Shown: positions 6,869 through 35,602 of the stretch, piece after piece
How positions within the stretch are numbered: position 1 is the first letter of the stretch
Layout of the letters: every line of letters starts with the position of its first letter
Source: Clostridia bacterium
Lineage (GTDB): Bacteria > Bacillota > Clostridia > Christensenellales > CAG-138
Length of the DNA: 37,101 bases
Direction of reading: 5' to 3'
NCBI GenBank assembly: GCA_045576895.1
Contig: JAZNHI010000015.1
Location: 1 to 37,101 of the forward strand
Notes under the pieces: generated by a model
Seen by the model: the letters and a program-made list of their open reading frames with translations, nothing else
What the model was told of the DNA's origin: nothing
The model's database searches: none
Translations under genes and position numbers: made by a program

Positions 6869-6896
6869 ATTATACCATGCCGTCCGAAAAAAGCAA
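6869..6896 (-). promoter_or_regulatory. candidate promoter for rpmE
   Basis: Reverse strand TTGCTT, 16-nt spacer, TGgTATAAT (extended -10). Confidence 0.5.
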
Positions 6897-6933
6897 GAAA
6901 AATTTTGCTGTTTTCATAACATTTTTTCGGAAG

Positions 6934-6980
6934 TCCTCCATTGCGCAAATCACAACATTCCTCCATTGCGCAAATCACAA
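6934..6980. repeat. tandem 22-nt direct repeat (period 25) carrying the TTGCGCAA palindrome plus an ATCAC tag
   Basis: TCCTCCATTGCGCAAATCACAA occurs at 6934-6955 and again at 6959-6980. Confidence 0.9.
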
Positions 6981-6987
6981 AATATGC

Positions 6988-7016
6988 TTGCATATCGGTA
7001 CAAATTGTGCTAAACT
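6988..7016 (+). promoter_or_regulatory. candidate promoter for the LRR-protein leader
   Basis: TTGCAT (6988-6993), 17-nt spacer, TGcTAAACT (extended -10, 7011-7016). This implies a leader of about 200 nt. Confidence 0.45.
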
Positions 7017-7149
7017 AAATATGGTATGCGACACGAATCGAATACATAATCCGGCTGAACAGCACTCATGTAGGTATATGCGAATTGCCCTTGGCAAAAG
7101 CGTACGGCTCCATGAGCACGCCTATCTGAGTTGTGTGTTCGATTTGTGT

Positions 7150-7207
7150 CGCAGCAAAGGAGCTTGCGTTTTTCGTGCGCGGCTCCCGCTGCGCACTTTT
7201 AATTTTT
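7150..7207 (+). promoter_or_regulatory. leader attenuator: two tandem intrinsic-terminator-like hairpins just upstream of the RBS
   Basis: CGCAGC-aaagga-GCT(T)GCG + TTTTT (7150-7173). Then GTGCGCGGC-tccc-GCTGCGCAC + TTTTAATTTTT (7175-7207). The GGAGG RBS follows at 7209. Confidence 0.45.
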
Positions 7208-7222
7208 GGAGGAGGAAGCAAG

Positions 7223-9631
7223 ATGAAAAGGAGAATCTGGATCCCGATCGTGTGTCTGATCCTGATGTTCGCGCTGATCACTTCGGCGGCGGCGGAGGGC
7301 AACGTGTATGAGCTCGTGACGGACGTCTCGCAACTTGCCTCGGGCGATACGATCACGATCGTCAGCGACGACGGGGCGAACTATTTCGCGTTCGGACCGG
7401 ACTTTTCCGGCGTACAGATCAGGATCTCCGACGGAACCGTCAGCGAAAAGGACGGAATGGTGCGGATCACGCCGGAAGAAACGAACGGCGGTTGGCTGCT
7501 CAAAACGGAGAACGGCTATTTCGCAGTCGTGACGGGGACGCTTTCGTATGTTTCCGACCGTGCGGACGCCACGGTCTTTTCGATCTCCGTCACATCGAGC
7601 GGCGACGCGCACATCACCTGCGACGCGGGACAGCTCGCATATGCCGAGGTCGACGGCGCGTACCGCTTCGTCTGCGGCGCGGGCAACGAGGTCCGGATCT
7701 ACAGCGCGTCCTTTGCGCACGTGTTCGGCGACAACCTGTTCTGGAAATATGAAAACGGCAAGCTGACGATCGGCGGCGAAGGCGAGATGCCCTCCGACAC
7801 GCCTTGGTGGGACAGAGACGTCCGGGAAGCAGTCATCCTTGACGGCGTCACAAGCGTTGCGGACAATGCGTTTAACTGGAGCAGAGACCTCAGCAAAGTA
7901 ACGCTTTCAAACACCGTAGAGACGATCGGCTACAGAGCGTTCAGCTACTGCGACAAGCTGAAAGAGATCACGATCCCGGACAGCGTCGTTTCGATCGGCG
8001 CATACGCTTTTGAAGGCAGTTCGAACCTTGCCGAGATCCATATCGGAAGCGGCGTCAGATCCGTATACGGCTTGGGCAGCTGGCTAAGGAACTCGTTCTA
8101 TGATACTGCCTGGTTGAACGCACAGCCGGACGGGCCGGTTTATCTCGATTATGTTTTTCTCGGTTACAAAGGCACTGCCGCGCAGATCGTCAGACCGAAG
8201 GCAGGTACGACTGTGATCGCAAACTACGCGTTTTTCCAGGAGCCGATCGAAAAAGCGGTTCTTCCCGACAGCGTGGAGTATATCGGCGGCAGTGCGTTCG
8301 GACACTGCAGTGAACTGAAGGACGTTTCATTTGGACAGAACGTCGTCAGCATCGGGGAAAATGCGTTCTATGCAGATGCAAAGCTGACGTCGATCACGAT
8401 CCCGGACAGTGTGACAAGCATCGGACAGAACGCTTTCGCCGAATGTACCGGGCTGACGGACGTTACGCTTCCGTGCAATCTCGAGGTCATCGAATCCAGC
8501 CTGTTTTACGGCTGTACCGGTCTGACGGAGATCACCGTTCCGGACAAGGTGACGCGCATCGGGGTCACTGCGTTCGCAAAGTGCAGCGGATTGACGACGG
8601 TCTATCTCAGCCGCAGCGTTGCGGCGATCGAATGGAAGGCGTTCGAGGATTGCGATCTTTTGACGGACGTATATTATGACGGAACCAGATCCGACCGCGA
8701 ACGGCTGCTGACGATCGCTGAGAGTTCGAATCCCGATCTCATGAACGCGACATGGCATTATCTGACCGCTTCGGTTGAGGGAACGGTCGAATGGAACGCC
8801 GAGGACGTCAAGTACAAGGGTACGACCGCATACGTGATCGCAAACGGCAGCGCGCAGACGCCGCGGTTTACCGTAAAGGATGCGGATGGCGTCGTGATCG
8901 ATCCGGCATACTACGATTACGAGTACCGCGAAAACACCAACGCGGGCACCGGCTACGTGATCGTAACCTTCAAGGGCGATTATGAGGGAACCTGCCGCGG
9001 CGTGTTCAAGATCTATCTGCCCGCGACGACGACCACGACGGTCGAAAACGTATCGAACGGCATCAAGCTTACATGGAGCGCGGTCGCCGGCGCGGACGGC
9101 TACGTCATCTATCGCCGCGCATGGAGCAGCACGACGAACGGCTGGACGGACTTTGTGCGCTGGAACAACACGACGGCGTTGAACTGGACGGATACGAAGG
9201 TCTACGCCGGTACGCGCTACCAGTACGGGATCAAGGCGTACTTCAACCGCAGAGTCGATCCGGTTTCCGGCGCGACGATCGGCGGCAACGTCGGAGATAA
9301 TTACAACCTCGGCGAGGTCGGACCTTTGAAGACGACCGTACGCATCACCACGCGTACGCTGAACAGTGTGACCGCGGGCAAAAAGCAGATGACCGTCAAG
9401 TGGAGCGCGAGCAGCGTCTTTACGGGCTATCAGATCCAGTATGCCACGAACAGCGCGTTTACGCAGAACGCAAAGGCGATCAAGATCACAGACCCGAAGA
9501 CGGCGCAGACCGTGATCAAGAACCTGACGAAGGGCAAGACCTATTATGTGCGCATCCGTTCGTATCATGAGTTCAACGGCATGACGTACTTCGGCGAATG
9601 GTCGAATGTGAAAAGCTGCAAGGTGAAGTAA
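7223..9631 (+). CDS. secreted BspA-type leucine-rich-repeat surface protein with C-terminal Ig/Fn3-like domains
   Basis: Signal peptide MKRRIWIPIVCLILMFALITSAAAEG. Many LRR_5-type repeats (IPDSVTSIGQNAFAECTGLTDVTLP and similar). C-terminal Fn3-like modules (GYVIYRR..., GYQIQYATNSAF...YYVRIRSY). GGAGGAGG RBS before the ATG at 7223. Confidence 0.8.
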   Translation: MKRRIWIPIVCLILMFALITSAAAEGNVYELVTDVSQLASGDTITIVSDDGANYFAFGPDFSGVQIRISDGTVSEKDGMVRITPEETNGGWLLKTENGYFAVVTGTLSYVSDRADATVFSISVTSSGDAHITCDAGQLAYAEVDGAYRFVCGAGNEVRIYSASFAHVFGDNLFWKYENGKLTIGGEGEMPSDTPWWDRDVREAVILDGVTSVADNAFNWSRDLSKVTLSNTVETIGYRAFSYCDKLKEITIPDSVVSIGAYAFEGSSNLAEIHIGSGVRSVYGLGSWLRNSFYDTAWLNAQPDGPVYLDYVFLGYKGTAAQIVRPKAGTTVIANYAFFQEPIEKAVLPDSVEYIGGSAFGHCSELKDVSFGQNVVSIGENAFYADAKLTSITIPDSVTSIGQNAFAECTGLTDVTLPCNLEVIESSLFYGCTGLTEITVPDKVTRIGVTAFAKCSGLTTVYLSRSVAAIEWKAFEDCDLLTDVYYDGTRSDRERLLTIAESSNPDLMNATWHYLTASVEGTVEWNAEDVKYKGTTAYVIANGSAQTPRFTVKDADGVVIDPAYYDYEYRENTNAGTGYVIVTFKGDYEGTCRGVFKIYLPATTTTTVENVSNGIKLTWSAVAGADGYVIYRRAWSSTTNGWTDFVRWNNTTALNWTDTKVYAGTRYQYGIKAYFNRRVDPVSGATIGGNVGDNYNLGEVGPLKTTVRITTRTLNSVTAGKKQMTVKWSASSVFTGYQIQYATNSAFTQNAKAIKITDPKTAQTVIKNLTKGKTYYVRIRSYHEFNGMTYFGEWSNVKSCKVK

Positions 9632-9646
9632 GCATGAAAACAAACA

Positions 9647-9678
9647 CGGGAGAGCGGATCGCTCTCCCGTTTCCTTTT
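9647..9678. terminator. bidirectional intrinsic terminator
   Basis: CGGGAGAGCG-gat-CGCTCTCCCG perfect 10-bp stem. TTTCCTTTT follows on the + strand and TGTTTGTTTT on the - strand. Confidence 0.75.
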
Positions 9679-9680
9679 GC

Positions 9681-9856
9681 GCGGCGAAAGCCGCATATCG
9701 TATTTGAATGTCAAATATATCGTGCTTGCGTAGGCAAGTATCTCGTTCTGCTTCAGCAGAATATCGCTGTATGATGCCGGGCAGCGGCGATATGCCCTGC
9801 AGGCGTGATATACCTTCGGCACGATATACCTTCGGCACGATATGCCCTGCGGGCAT
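9681..9856. repeat. array of about 9 short hairpin modules tagged ATATCG / CGATAT (two converging half-arrays)
   Basis: Unit coordinates are given in the finding for this region. It includes an identical 16-mer, GATATACCTTCGGCAC, at 9807-9822 and 9823-9838. Confidence 0.85.
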
Positions 9857-9861
9857 GCGCT

Positions 9862-11583
9862 TTACTGTCCGTAGCGGTTCTGCTGGACCTGCTTCGAGGT
9901 GAAGCCCTCCTTTTCGAAGATGCGGACCCATTCCTTCAGACGGACGAGGAATTCCTCGTTGTTCGGCGTCTTGTCCATCATGGAGACAAGGTTTTCCGTG
10001 ACGTCGCCGGTGCCACCGTTTGCAAGCATCCGACGCAGCATGCGTACACCGTCGAGCTCGGTTTTCGTGAGCAGCAGATCGTCGCGGCGCGTGCCAGACT
10101 TATAGACGTCGATCGCGGGGAAGATGCGCTTTTCGGAGAGCTTGCGATCCAGATGGATCCCCATATTGCCGGTGCCCTTGAATTCCTCGTAGACGATGTC
10201 GTCCATGCGGCTGCCGGTTTCTACGAGTGCAGTTGCGATCACGGTCAGACTACCGCCGTTTTCGATGTTGCGCGCGGCGCCAAAAAAACGCTTGGGCTTG
10301 TGCAGCGCGCCCGGATCCATACCGCCGGAAAGCGTGCGGCCGGTCGGCGGGATCACGAGGTTATAGGCGCGCGTGAGACGGGTGAGGGAGTCCAAAAGGA
10401 TCACGACGTCGCGTCCGTCCTCGACCAGACGCATGGCGCGCTCCTGTACCATTTCCGCAATGCGCGTGTGATGCTCGGGAAGCTCGTCGAACGTAGAAGC
10501 AACAACCTCGCCTTTGATGCTGCGGCGCATGTCAGTGACCTCCTCGGGACGCTCGTCGATCAGCAGGACGATGAGATGCGTGTCGGGATAGTTTTCGGTA
10601 ATGCCGTTTGCAATCTGCTTCAGAAGTGTCGTTTTGCCTGCCTTCGGCTGCGAAACTATCATGGCGCGCTGACCCTTGCCGATCGGTGCGATCAGGTCGA
10701 TCAGCCGCACGGAGAGGTTGTTGACACGTCCCGGCGTTTCGAGCGTATAGCGCTCGTTCGGGAAGATGGGAACGAGATCCTCGTAATTGACGCGGTTCAC
10801 GGCATTCTCATCCGGATCCTTACCGTTCACGCGATCGACGTACAACAGCGCTTCGTATTTGTCGCCTTCACGGCGCGCGCGGGTGCGTCCTTCGACGAAA
10901 TCGCCGTTTTTCAGATTGCAGCGGCGGATCTGCGCGTTTGCGACATAGACGTCGTTGGGACCGGAATCGTAGTTCGAAACGCGAAGAAAGCCGTAGCCCT
11001 CCATGATCTCCAGAACGCCGGCTGCCGTGCCGGTTTCGGGAAGCTGTATAGGTTCTGCGAGCTTTTGTTCGCCGTCCGGCGCATGATACTGCGGACGGTT
11101 GTTTCCCTGACGGAAATTGCGGTTCCGGTTTTGCGGACCGTTTTGCTGACGGTGGTTATTCCGCGAATACTGCTGACGCTGTTCGACGTTCGTGTGCTCC
11201 TGCTGTTTCTCGGCTTCAGACGTTGACAGATCGGTCGCAGAGATCGGTTGAGATGCTTCGGCATGCGGCAGTTCTGGAGACTGTTCGAGTGCAAGAACAG
11301 GGGCCTCCGGCGCAGATTCCTTCTGCACGGGACCGGTCTGCTGCATTTCGTCCGTTTTTGCCGGCCTGCCGCGCTTTCGCTGCTGCGGCGCTTTCGCTTC
11401 GGATGCAGGCGTATCGGTTTTCTCTTTTGCCGGTCTGCCGCGCTTTTTCTTTTCTGGCGCAGGCGCCTGCAGCATCTCGATGAGCTGCGCTTTTTTATAT
11501 TTGCGGTAAGAGGGAATACCGTGCTGTTTTGCAAGATTATACAGCTCGGCGATCGTCAGTGTTTCCAGTTCGGTTTGATTCAC
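9862..11583 (-). CDS. rho: transcription termination factor Rho with a long N-terminal insertion domain
   Basis: Rho_N ([29 protein letters not shown]), CSD-like RNA-binding domain, and a RecA-type ATPase ([18 protein letters not shown]). GTG start at 11583 is preceded by GGAGG with a 6-nt spacer. The track's ATG at 11700 adds non-homologous sequence. Confidence 0.9.
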
Positions 11584-14737: not shown

Positions 14738-15196
14738 TTACACCTGCGAATCGGAATCCGCGCTTTGCTGCAGTGCATGCAGCTGCGCGGTCATTTTTTT
14801 GGATTCCGACACCTGACCGAGCCACATCATGAGCACGGCGAGAACGTAGATCACCAACACGGTACCGCCGATGAGAAGGATCAATTCGGGACGTTTCGTG
14901 TCAATGGAAGGGCTCATAAACGATATCAGCATCATCACGCCTTCGATCAGAACAAGCTGGATCGCGTGCCGAATCAGTACCTGCTTCACCGACAGCTTTT
15001 TTCTCGAGTAGGTCACAACGGTCGGCAGCGTACACAGCCCCGCCACATATAGCGGACTCAGCAGATCAATGTAACGGATGTGCAGCAATACGCCCGGTTC
15101 TGCAACGGTTCCGACGATGCTCTGTGCAAGCAGGATCATCACGGTCAGGAAAAAGAACAGCCGGATTCTTGAAACAATAAAATCTTTAACGGTCAT
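14738..15196 (-). CDS. DUF3021-type four-TM membrane protein (partner of the LytTR regulator)
   Basis: Small polytopic protein overlapping the LytTR gene stop by 11 nt. This is the typical LytTR+DUF3021 pairing. Confidence 0.7.
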   Translation of the reverse strand: MTVKDFIVSRIRLFFFLTVMILLAQSIVGTVAEPGVLLHIRYIDLLSPLYVAGLCTLPTVVTYSRKKLSVKQVLIRHAIQLVLIEGVMMLISFMSPSIDTKRPELILLIGGTVLVIYVLAVLMMWLGQVSESKKMTAQLHALQQSADSDSQV

Positions 15197-18727: not shown

Positions 18728-20485
18728 TTATCCTTCACCATCGTCGCTTGGCTGCGGCGTTTCCGGTTTCGGCGTATCGGGCTTGGGCGTTTCAGGCGCA
18801 GGCGTATCCGGCTTCGGCGTATCGGGTTCCGGCGTATCGGGTTCCGGCGTATCGGGCGCGGGCGTATGGGGCGCAGGGGTCGTCGGATCGGGATCATCCG
18901 ATCCATGCGAGGTCGGCGTAGGCGTCGGGTCGGACGGTCCGCTTGTTGCGGAGCCGGAAGGGCTCGGCGAAGCGTCGGGACCGACGATATAGACCGCGGA
19001 GAATGCTTTATACGTGGAGGTATCCAGCTTCTTGCGCTCCACAAGTTCACCGTTCAGATAGTATTCCACATAACTCTGCCAGACGGAACCCTTCTGATTT
19101 TTGACGAGCTGCTTCTTGTAGCCCGGCTTTTTGCTTTCATCGACGCGGTATTCCACTTCACCGGTCGGACTCAGCGTTTTGATCTTTTTGGGATCCGGGA
19201 TACGGATCTCGTCATACTGTCCGTTCGAATCCTCAATGATCGGGATGCCCCAAATCTCCATCGTCAGCTTGCCGGCTTTCTTATAATCCGAATTGTCGAC
19301 GTACGAGATAATGATAATATCGGACTTACTGCTGTTTTGGAATTTGAAGTCGATGATATTGCCGATCGAGTTGATGGTCGCGTCGCGTCCCTTCGAAACA
19401 TAATCGACGGGCATCGAGTGATTGCGTCGTTCAACGATCTTCATGTCCGCCATGACCGCTGCATTATAGAGCGTGCTGGAAAGCTGACAAACGCCGCCGC
19501 CGTATTGCTTTTCATGTGCACCGGCAACGTAAGCGGTTGCGACCTTCCATCCGTTCGCCTTATTGCGGACACCGAGCGTGCCGTTTGCAGAGAACGTTTC
19601 GCCGGGATGCAGGATGGTACCGCTGATCAGTCCTGCCCCTTTGAAGATGTTATACTTACGATTGTTGATGCTCTTGTGATAATCGGTCGTCATCGTGCCG
19701 CGCAGGACATATTTGTTCTGAATATCTTCGAGCTTGACTTCTGCGGGGGATTCCTTGATCGGCGCGGAGATCGTATCGCCGGGTTTTGCATCCATCAGCG
19801 AGGCGAAGAGCTGCTCGCGATCGACGGCACGCCCCGGAACATCGCTGATAAAATCGATCTTGTTTTCGTCTTTGTTATAGGAAACAGAGGCGTCGATGGG
19901 CTTCGTATCGTTTGCATCTGCAAAAACGTTTATCTTCTCACGGAGCGAAGCTTCATCGAATGTCAAAAGAACGGGGAAATCCTGTCCGGACGTTCTGATC
20001 CGTTCCACTTCGGCAGAAACCGCCTCGAAGCCGTTGTCCTCGCGAACAAGCGCAAATGCTTCGTTAAGCGCATCGTCGAGATTGTCGATCGTTGCGATCG
20101 TTTCGCCGGAGAACGATTCGGACACTTCGCCGAATGAAACCTCAACGCGCATGTTCTGCCTTGCCTGCTCGAGCGTGGAAAGCACAGCACTGCGTGCTTG
20201 ATCAAGCGTCATACCGCCGACGGGTACTCCGTTGACGGTAACGCCTTCCAGCATGGTAGTGCGCTTCAGAATCGCGTTGAGCTCTTCGCGGTGCGGATCG
20301 GGTTCCGGCGTCACGATAGAGATCTCTTCGGACCCGCCGTGCACGGGTTGGTTCGGATCGACCAGCTCGCCGGTGCGGGGGTTGTAATCCACGTTCGTTT
20401 TGTCGTCCGTCTTTCCGCATGCAAGGCAGAGAATCAGCATCAAAGCGATCAGCGGAAACAGCCAGAAATAATGATTCTTCTTCAT
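18728..20485 (-). CDS. VanW-domain lipoprotein with G5 domain and Pro/Thr/Asp-rich C-terminal repeat tail
   Basis: Lipobox (LILCLACG). VanW core (PGETFSANG...YGGGVCQLSSTLYNA...RNHSMPVDYV). G5-like segment (EVEYRVDESKKPGY...). Tail of (PDTPx)n. Confidence 0.85.
   Translation of the reverse strand: MKKNHYFWLFPLIALMLILCLACGKTDDKTNVDYNPRTGELVDPNQPVHGGSEEISIVTPEPDPHREELNAILKRTTMLEGVTVNGVPVGGMTLDQARSAVLSTLEQARQNMRVEVSFGEVSESFSGETIATIDNLDDALNEAFALVREDNGFEAVSAEVERIRTSGQDFPVLLTFDEASLREKINVFADANDTKPIDASVSYNKDENKIDFISDVPGRAVDREQLFASLMDAKPGDTISAPIKESPAEVKLEDIQNKYVLRGTMTTDYHKSINNRKYNIFKGAGLISGTILHPGETFSANGTLGVRNKANGWKVATAYVAGAHEKQYGGGVCQLSSTLYNAAVMADMKIVERRNHSMPVDYVSKGRDATINSIGNIIDFKFQNSSKSDIIIISYVDNSDYKKAGKLTMEIWGIPIIEDSNGQYDEIRIPDPKKIKTLSPTGEVEYRVDESKKPGYKKQLVKNQKGSVWQSYVEYYLNGELVERKKLDTSTYKAFSAVYIVGPDASPSPSGSATSGPSDPTPTPTSHGSDDPDPTTPAPHTPAPDTPEPDTPEPDTPKPDTPAPETPKPDTPKPETPQPSDDGEG
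18756..18880 (-). repeat. in-frame 15-nt tandem repeat (about 8 units) encoding the PDTPx pentapeptide tail
   Basis: GGCGTATCGGGTTCC-type units repeat with period 15, and two units are identical. They translate to PDTPEPDTPEPDTPKPDTPAPETPKPDTPKPETP. Confidence 0.9.
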
Positions 20486-35382: not shown

Positions 35383-35560
35383 AAGTGTTATTTGCACTGT
35401 CGGCGCAAGTGATATTTTTGTCGCAATCGGCAGAAGTGATGTTTCTCCCTGCGGTCACAGTGATGAAAAGTGTTCCGCTCACGCACGAATTGCACATCAC
35501 TTGCGAAGCAAACATCACGCCGAAAGGCGCATCACGTTCCGCAGGAGCGGATCACATCGT
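35383..35560. repeat. array of hairpin+ATCAC modules: 3x AGTGAT then 4x ATCAC (diverging half-arrays)
   Basis: GTGAT at 35409, 35436 and 35460. ATCAC at 35496, 35514, 35531 and 35551. Adjacent small hairpins include TTGC-GAA-GCAA, GCC-GAAA-GGC, TCCGC-AGGA-GCGGA and TGTCG-CAAT-CGGCA. Confidence 0.85.
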
Positions 35561-35562
35561 TG

Positions 35563-35602
35563 AAAAAAGCGTCTTTTGTCTATCGACAAAAGACGCTTTT
35601 TT
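35563..35602. terminator. strong bidirectional intrinsic terminator (serves the methyltransferase gene on the - strand)
   Basis: AAAAAA-GCGTCTTTTGTC-tatc-GACAAAAGACGC-TTTTTT, a perfect 12-bp stem with flanking A and T tracts. Confidence 0.85.

Follow-up and report, generated by a model that had tools for sequence, protein, structure and literature searches.

Extragenic hairpins with a short conserved flank are known from the REP/BIME elements of enterobacteria and pseudomonads, which lie behind genes as inverted pairs or clusters, are patchy between strains, stabilise upstream mRNA and affect termination. REP copies are near-identical within a genome, carry GTAG and are tied to RAYT transposases. 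The sponge RNAs CsrB and RsmZ present an invariant GGA motif in hairpin loops many times on a scaffold. Hairpin clusters downstream of stop codons in inter-operon regions were proposed as intrinsic termination signals (Gupta and Pal, 2021, Sci Rep 11:16194, PMC8355165). The original description presents Gut-1 (Rfam RF01706), a likely non-coding RNA, as known "only in human gut", with no host, no function and one arm (Weinberg et al., 2010, Genome Biol 11:R31, PMC2864571). It was rated "RNA: Y" from covariation alone, with 18 covarying positions recorded, and a literature search found no Gut-1 paper later than this one. Here we analyzed a 176-base array of hairpins and short tags (array 1) that lies beside rho in the Clostridia contig JAZNHI010000015.1. 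The window under study is this entire 37,101-bp contig of a metagenome-assembled genome (MAG). The block beside rho very probably belongs to the Gut-1 family. Judged from its sequence, array 1 is a divergent and rearranged copy of Gut-1, a structural variant and not a regular member, and no new kind of element.

Array 1 shares with Gut-1 the four UGAWAU-type tags between three to four short hairpins, as well as CUUCGG and CUGCGG loops. Like Gut-1, array 1 and a second array of the window (array 2) are intergenic, lie near an intrinsic terminator and come from gut-type anaerobes, and the flanks of the published Gut-1 seeds also have a 4+4 plan. Array 1 is unlike Gut-1 in its CGAUAU/AUAUCG tag, its opposite arm order and its score of 16 as against 50 bits. 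A sequence-only reading of this DNA had known of no named family with such a pattern; four tags combined with three to four hairpins are, however, the grammar of Gut-1. The other systems are more distant. In array 1 the stems differ in every unit (8-9 stems) and the tag differs between arrays, in contrast to REP, so that the REP/BIME-like label of the sequence-only reading holds as an analogy only: the hairpins are not conserved copies and the tag is not GTAG. A RAYT (Y1) gene was found neither in the 18 window open reading frames (ORFs) of at least 150 aa that were scanned against Pfam nor among the precomputed Pfam domains of those related contigs that were retrieved. The arrays resemble CsrB/RsmZ in repetition on a hairpin scaffold, but their repeated motif is a linker and varies between arrays. 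The hairpin-cluster concept (PMC8355165) is not known to include a conserved linker tag, a two-armed symmetry or homology at the family level.

Array 1 is intergenic, between rho on the minus strand and a convergent gene for a BspA-like protein on the plus strand. Its plan is four hairpin-then-tag units, a centre hairpin and four tag-then-hairpin units, and every unit that the sequence-only reading had described was recovered at its position. The elements are as follows.

9681-9766, no strand assigned: left arm, four hairpins with stems of 5-7 bp, followed by ATATCG, (A)TATCG, TCTCG and (A)TATCG
9681-9694: left-arm hairpin 1, GCGGC-GAAA-GCCGC
9701-9717: left-arm hairpin 2, TATTTGA-ATG-TCAAATA
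9723-9740: left-arm hairpin 3, TGCTTGC-GTAG-GCAAGTA
9746-9761: left-arm hairpin 4, TTCTGC-TTCA-GCAGAA
9695, 9717 and 9761: left-arm tags ATATCG
9741: left-arm tag TCTCG
9767-9787: centre, 21 nt, with the hairpin GCCG-GGCAG-CGGC at 9776-9788, whose last base is the first base of right-arm tag 1
9788-9856, Gut-1-sense on the plus strand: right arm, CGATAT, (G)TGATAT, CGATAT and CGATAT, each followed by a hairpin (GCCCTGCAGGC, ACCTTCGGCA twice and GCCCTGCGGGCAT)
9788, 9822 and 9838: right-arm tags CGATAT
9806: right-arm tag TGATAT
9807-9843: perfect 16-nt tandem duplication GATATACCTTCGGCAC, 2.3 copies with 100% matches (Tandem Repeats Finder), a duplicated tag-plus-hairpin unit

Read on the minus strand, the left arm becomes CGAUAU or CGAGAU plus a hairpin, four times. 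As hairpins, the two ACCTTCGGCA units are very weak on the plus strand (2 bp and a UUCG loop); the minus strand does better through a G·U pair.

To place the arrays, we scanned them against Rfam at relaxed thresholds; the gathering score of Gut-1 is 50 bits. Its Rfam consensus, UGAAAU-hairpin-GUGAAAU-hairpin-GUGAAAU-hairpin-GUGAAAU, spans one arm only. Related contigs are given here as L numbers. The matches were:

L101, 14991-15064, minus strand: 64.3 bits, E 7e-13, above the gathering score
L101, 14878-14971, plus strand: 47.8 bits, E 1.1e-8
L167, proximal arm, plus strand: 36.6 bits, E 6.8e-6, significant and below the gathering score
Window, 35489-35562 (array 2), minus strand: 21.6 bits, E 0.043
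Window, 9785-9848 (right arm of array 1), plus strand: 16.4 bits, E 0.83

On the plus strand, the right arm of array 1 follows the Gut-1 plan, with CGAUAU, GUGAUAU, CGAUAU and CGAUAU tags and hairpins between them. Some of the published seeds themselves use GUGAUAU or GCGAUAU tags. We also summed local alignments of the four window arms against 11 seed arms and obtained z values of 12.3, 9.8, 6.1 and 4.0 against shuffles; the reverse-complement controls for the same four arms gave 3.0, -0.9, 3.6 and 1.8. The highest value belongs to the right arm of array 1 (12.3, reverse complement 3.0) and the lowest to its left arm (4.0, reverse complement 1.8). A comparison with the distal arms yielded the complementary picture. 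MAFFT alignments of the seeds (A2-A4) were inconsistent with the structure in hairpin 1, and a census by tag regular expressions took the place of a custom covariance model.

The seed alignment with its flanks (supplementary file 95 of PMC2864571) reveals more of Gut-1 than the Rfam model contains. In the seeds, Gut-1 begins right behind an intrinsic terminator, itself downstream of a gene for a tRNA or a protein, and the junction UUUUUUCAACGAAAU is conserved there, although the Rfam model does not include it. A mirrored arm with four AUWUCAC tags and longer hairpins occupies the 3' flank in most seeds read, and the two-armed 4+4 array is therefore the usual form of Gut-1; a few seeds are single-armed. 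Flanks with a mirrored arm of four AUAUCAC tags directly behind the terminator also occur, and one seed contig holds four tandem copies at a 240-nt period, each with a terminator. In addition, we found a long-range helix in which tag 1 and the 5' arm of hairpin 1 pair with a segment just past hairpin 4. It is perfect over 9-13 bp in each of the 11 two-armed seeds as well as in L101 (9 bp, 14985-15068) and L167 (11 bp, 10687-10790), and has one mismatch in array 2 (8 of 9). At least six different sequences form this helix, and its observed length was reached in at most 1 of 300 shuffles per array. It competes with hairpin 1 and is absent from the Rfam model; junction and helix as Gut-1 features were both derived from the seeds in the present analysis. 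Between arms, the tags form five kinds of pairs: GUGAAAU/AUUUCAC, GUGAUAU/AUAUCAC, AUGAAAU/AUUUCAU, GUGAUG/CAUCAC and CGAUAU/AUAUCG.

Array 2 and the array of L101 have the canonical layout.

35385-35555, no strand assigned: array 2, canonical Gut-1 layout with GTGTTAT, GTGATAT, GTGATG, GTGATG, a centre, CATCAC three times and GATCAC
35556-35602: junction ATCGTTG (CAACGAT on the minus strand) and the bidirectional terminator of a methyltransferase gene; canonical Gut-1 elements start with a conserved TTTTTTCAACGA
L101, 14876-15070: array of a human-gut Christensenellaceae-like contig, GTGAAAT four times, then ATATCAC and three times ATTTCAC

The seed junction TTTTTTCAACGA (TTTTTTCAACGAT) is present in array 2 and in L167 alike. 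The sequence-only reading had announced a recurrence of the array 1 grammar at 35383-35560, and the array is real, but its tag is another one: GTGAT(G), repeated three to four times, and then (C)ATCAC four times. The two arrays of this contig differ in their tags (CGAUAU versus GUGAUG) and have no unit in common. Compared with L167, array 2 shows a compensated stem change (GCC-UUUC-GGC to GUCC-UUC-GGAC), and one unit is swapped for an unrelated perfect hairpin while the tag count is kept at 4+4. The terminator stem of the methyltransferase gene is likewise replaced by an unrelated one between the window (35563-35602) and L167 (10660-10687), with the A-run, the T-run and the downstream CAACGAT kept. 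The methyltransferase protein that flanks array 2 is identical in L167, L168 and L169, yet among these only L167 has the array, and the genes downstream of this site differ in all four contigs (window, L167, L168 and L169). The L101 array adjoins the terminator downstream of tRNA-Gly and tRNA-Cys and is absent in three close relatives that keep the tRNAs (L061, L095 and L096). Upstream of it, a direct repeat of about 51 nt, GACGAGTGACGGTTCYGACTCGTCGGTAAAATAAAAAGTGACCGAGCGAAG, occurs twice at L101 14655-14755, in a region that is absent in close relatives.

These arrays exceed what chance would give. Chains of a 5-mer that converge on chains of its reverse complement were found at two loci only in the 37-kb window, array 1 and 35383-35560. 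A strict detector of such converging chains gave four matches in 1.29 Mb of related DNA against 0-1 in shuffles. A tolerant version gave 14 loci in 2.44 Mb against 2-7 matches per Markov shuffle; four of the 14 are true arrays, and the others inspected are repeats within genes. The array 1 region also folds better than dinucleotide shuffles (z = -3.7 on the plus and -3.2 on the minus strand). In the tag census across 2.46 Mb of relatives, bona fide arrays occurred only in L101, L167, the window and L170. The block belongs to an extragenic element family, as had been proposed earlier, and this family recurs in the same contig and in other genomes. Several cruder detectors were discarded. A generic search for hairpin arrays, with a minimum stem of 4 bp and a maximum linker of 9 nt, gave 30 matches against 9-11 in shuffles, missed array 1 and was too noisy. 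A one-mismatch tag detector (3406 real matches versus 4181) and a generic nested-helix "ladder" detector (1546 versus about 1290) were uninformative, and a half-array detector with spanning hairpins (108 versus 44-58) returned extra matches, of which those inspected were coding repeats.

A further recurrence, proposed at 6934-6980, did not hold up. What lies there, ahead of the BspA-like gene, is a 22-nt direct repeat with two exact copies, and TTGCGCAA within it is a loopless 8-mer palindrome. Here TCCTCCATTGCGCAAATCACAA occurs twice with a 25-nt period, 9 nt before a sequence that is likely to be the promoter of this gene (TTGCAT ... TAAACT), and the repeat looks like a transcription-factor binding site rather than a hairpin/tag array. 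A 15-nt tandem repeat, GGCTCCGGCGTATCG, with 8.2 copies and 78% matches lies at 18750-18872 inside a PG_binding_4/VanW ORF. The relatives also contain other extragenic multi-hairpin elements that are unrelated to the tag grammar (L003 11770-11980, L011 11780-11960 and L008 6840-7171). One multi-hairpin type is closed by CCTCATC...GATGAGG, and another by GTCATCCTGAG...CTCAGGATGAC with internal AGCGAAGGATCTTG repeats.

We used mismatches inside the stems to ask on which strand, and in which nucleic acid, the hairpins are maintained. On the Gut-1-sense strand, the proximal arms of 14 canonical arrays contain 26 G·U versus 1 A·C mismatches. The distal arms contain 3 G·U versus 19 A·C on this strand, that is, 19 versus 3 on the other. 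Controls gave 132 versus 130 across the window and 449 versus 272 in composition-matched shuffles. Compared with these controls, the G·U bias reveals selection on RNA hairpins, each arm on its inward strand. This shows that canonical Gut-1 hairpins are maintained as RNA, each arm on its own inward-reading strand. By extension, the same RNA-level maintenance would apply to array 1, and we regard an RNA-level role as reasonably probable. In array 1, the left arm folds better as RNA on the plus strand (-33.7 versus -22.7 kcal/mol; z -4.9 versus -2.3) and the right arm slightly favours the minus strand, so that by folding energy both arms point inward, as in canonical arrays. A DNA-level role via d(GCGAAGC)-type mini-hairpins on the purine-loop strand was rejected, since the G·U data point the opposite way.

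Several observations weigh against the assignment of array 1 to Gut-1 and against its role as RNA. Both window arrays stay under the 50-bit gathering score, array 1 far under it and with its right arm only. The left arm of array 1 resembles published Gut-1 arms weakly (z 4.0-4.2). Array 1 is without the CAACGA junction (UUUUUUCAACGA of canonical copies), and its best long-range pairing is just 4-5 bp long, which shuffles equal. In terms of tag sequence, its arms stand back-to-back, whereas canonical arms stand face-to-face. Judged by tags and seed similarity, the sense arms of array 1 read outward from the centre, the right arm being Gut-1-sense on the plus and the left on the minus strand, and the sense side abuts a stop codon, while canonical Gut-1 abuts a terminator. 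Because of the reversed arms, the lacking junction and the lacking long-range helix, array 1 is treated here as a structural variant. On the RNA side, the raw folding energies of the canonical arms favour the inward strand in 14 of 14 and 12 of 14 cases, but as strand evidence this asymmetry was rejected: it is gone with DNA parameters and after composition control by shuffling. Internal G·U pairs in array 1 are too sparse for a call. The single one of the left arm (hairpin 3) favours the plus strand; in the right arm one favours the plus strand, and that of the duplicated unit, judged by eye, the minus strand. Finally, array 1 has two copies only, in the window and L170; they are identical, and the locus consequently offers no covariation.

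The strain distribution of array 1 was read together with its neighbours.

7223-9631, plus strand: gene for a BspA-type leucine-rich-repeat/Fn3 surface protein (Pfam), convergent with rho
9646-9670, both strands: bidirectional intrinsic terminator stem-loop, 11 bp with 8 G-C pairs and a T-rich tail on each strand (terminator scan)
9862-11583, minus strand: rho, 573 aa, GTG start after GGAGG; Pfam Rho_N, Rho_RNA_bind and ATP-synt_ab; product on record as P0101

Array 1 begins (9681) 10 nt past the end of the terminator stem (9670) and ends 5 nt from the rho stop codon. The sequence-only reading had placed the block directly downstream of rho; this is right, with the correction that rho is encoded on the minus strand. 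The N-terminus of this Rho has a long low-complexity insertion, with an AT-hook match and KKRGRPAK repeats, before its RNA-binding domain. The closest rho relatives are uncultured Clostridia MAGs, mainly from ruminant gut, and Christensenellales or Christensenellaceae appear as labels among the more distant ones. Searches with rho yielded no copy of this species, the top match being 89% identical among species representatives and 82% in JGI metagenomes, and exact-protein look-ups of Rho (with two start codons) and of the BspA-like protein gave no match. Population data for array 1 come from three contigs only (L170, L171 and L172), reached via homologues, whose Rho is 98% identical. L170 has the 802-aa BspA-like gene and an identical array 1, with one single-nucleotide difference beside the terminator. 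In L171 and L172, rho is followed directly by rpmE, with no BspA-like gene and no array. This shows that the array 1 module is accessory in the population. An insertion of about 2.9 kb that varies between strains (window ~6880-9861) separates the rho stop codon from the rpmE promoter and comprises array 1, the terminator and the BspA-like gene with its promoter. Most rho relatives have rpmE directly after rho. In four relatives rho is convergent with a BspA-like gene; three of these have a plain terminator in between and L003 an unrelated multi-hairpin region. The block is modular. It is no conserved rho 3' untranslated region (UTR) either: relatives have rho and then rpmE, or a plain terminator.

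Two side observations concern this junction. Three close-strain assemblies (L171, L172 and the 28,543-bp contig of GCA_016648615.1) break 143-177 nt past the rho stop codon; the breaks of L171 and L172 fall within rpmE, which suggests variability or repetition at the junction downstream of rho in those samples. At the DNA level, rpmE and its leader are near-identical across L001, L002, L004, L007-L010, L016, L018 and L055, while their Rho proteins are only 75-89% identical to that of the window.

We favour, with moderate confidence, the explanation that array 1 is a divergent accessory Gut-1 copy that acts at the RNA level in the rho 3' UTR, as a 3'-end module of the terminator zone. The terminator at 9646-9670 ends the BspA-like gene and is the sole terminator between the rho stop codon and 9646; the scan passed this hairpin only and no array 1 unit inside 9681-9856. 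From this layout, rho transcripts would cross the whole of array 1 to reach it (9670-9646), and array 1 would thus belong to the rho 3' UTR, since the sole terminator for rho lies beyond it. The sequence-only reading had proposed a rho 3' UTR that extends up to the terminator, and the layout, with the terminator scoring on both strands, agrees. Read-through from the BspA-like gene would enter array 1 from the opposite side. By analogy with the REP/BIME clusters of enterobacteria and with the proposed hairpin clusters (PMC8355165), a stable run of hairpins between convergent genes might cap 3' ends and limit read-through, insulating from either side, and the complementary tags of the two arms could zip the block into a branched rod. 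Such a 3'-end function is tentative, and we would call it possible rather than likely. This 3'-end or insulator role, drawn from analogy, is the weakest step of the favoured explanation, and it leaves the conservation of the tags unexplained, which weighs against it.

Alternatively, array 1 might be a single-transcript branched rod (or one formed by a single DNA strand) in which the four tags pair across the arms into four short, stacked helices and the variable hairpins form side branches, a ladder of four-way junctions that would serve as a scaffold or regulatory RNA. Tags vary between arrays and yet always match between the arms of one array (five pairs), with two different tag pairs within one contig, and the 4+4 plan is kept in most arrays. 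Complementarity in nested register exceeds the tag, with 9, 10 and 7 bp in array 1 and 9 bp in array 2 (window and L167). Long-range tag pairs appear in 7 of 8 minimum-free-energy folds of the strands, and in array 1 the tag polarity is swapped with complementarity kept. Nevertheless, the G·U and A·C counts put the arms on different strands, so one arm would be the wrong one in any single transcript, and the canonical long-range helix is topologically incompatible with a nested ladder. Single-armed copies exist, and mixed arrays such as BAAZ01000130 match in two of four rungs only. Moreover, the inverted arrangement of like units makes arm complementarity automatic in any inverted duplication, which weakens the argument from complementarity. 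We therefore consider the branched rod unlikely.

A selfish repeated DNA, that is, a non-autonomous REP/BIME- or MITE-like element that brings its own terminator and whose units are recognised by a recombinase or transposase, would explain the distribution of the arrays. Strains whose Rho is 98% identical, or whose flanking proteins are the same, differ in whether they have the arrays; the arrays occur at synteny breaks, beside tRNA genes and at the edge of inserted genes, and two copies lie within 37 kb. The four tandem seed copies at a 240-nt period with their terminator, the perfect unit duplication in array 1 and the contigs of two related assemblies that stop 143 nt past rho, within rpmE, fit as well. 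On the other hand, neither a Y1 (RAYT/IS200-type) nor any other transposase was seen in the 18 scanned window ORFs or in the precomputed Pfam annotation of the related contigs, and neither target-site duplications nor terminal repeats were identified. The hairpins do not have the sequences of conserved copies derived from one master element, the arrays are rare (4 in 2.46 Mb of related sequence), and the G·U bias indicates selection on RNA. We consider the selfish-DNA reading unlikely.

Less probable still is a multi-site RNA platform, in which single-stranded UGAWAU tags between the hairpins would be binding or cleavage sites, as for an RNA-binding-protein sponge or an endoribonuclease. All tags, including those of single-armed copies, fit a loose N-U/C-G-A-W-A/G-U consensus, and four evenly displayed sites per arm might be likened to the sponge design of CsrB/RsmZ. 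But the two arrays of one contig use CGAUAU and GUGAUG, the strands of array 1 that are favoured by folding energy carry the complement AUAUCG, and no candidate protein is linked to the arrays at any locus examined. The single tag-reading protein of the sequence-only reading agrees poorly with the use of different tags by the two arrays of one contig: tag co-variation speaks against it and for constraint on arm-to-arm complementarity. Known tag-like sites were also compared. CRP/FNR half-sites (TGTGA), DnaA boxes and Omega/ribbon-helix-helix heptads (WATCACW) were rejected, as were box C/D or kink-turn motifs (GUGAUGA), integron attC sites and transposon footprints; none of them fits every array, and the tags themselves vary. 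The weakest alternative, already disfavoured by family-wide conservation, is a functionless by-product of mutation that creates palindromes, through template switching or slippage, around a terminator; the terminator hairpin exchanged between the window and L167 with unchanged flanks and the perfect tandem duplication in array 1 would suit it, but unrelated genomes from gut and rumen share the architecture, the junction and the long-range helix, 18 positions covary (Weinberg et al., PMC2864571) and G·U stands to A·C as 26 to 1, which renders it highly improbable.

The favoured explanation, a divergent accessory Gut-1 copy in the rho 3' UTR, has a bearing on the family as a whole. Gut-1 has been an orphan since 2010, and the loci described here place it in MAGs of Clostridia from rumen and human gut, which in part carry the label Christensenellales or Christensenellaceae. 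To its description we add the usually two-armed 4+4 form joined to a terminator, a strongly co-varying helix outside the Rfam model and RNA constraint on both strands, as well as gain and loss between strains, at the edges of inserted genes. Going further, Gut-1 elements might form an unrecognised class of two-armed, self-complementary RNA modules whose arm pairing co-varies between copies (five tag pairs), whose canonical copies have a previously undescribed long-range helix of 10-13 bp, and which travel with a terminator as a strain-variable cassette boundary in Christensenellales-type gut and rumen Clostridia, array 1 being a second, swapped-arm topology in which complementarity and not tag sequence is selected; we think this rather doubtful. 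For the rho locus itself the consequence would be modest: some strains would have a structured 3' UTR of 230 nt on their rho mRNA and others none. It now becomes a testable question whether these arrays are a portable "terminator plus hairpin array" that insulates inserted genes or a selfish RNA-structured repeat.

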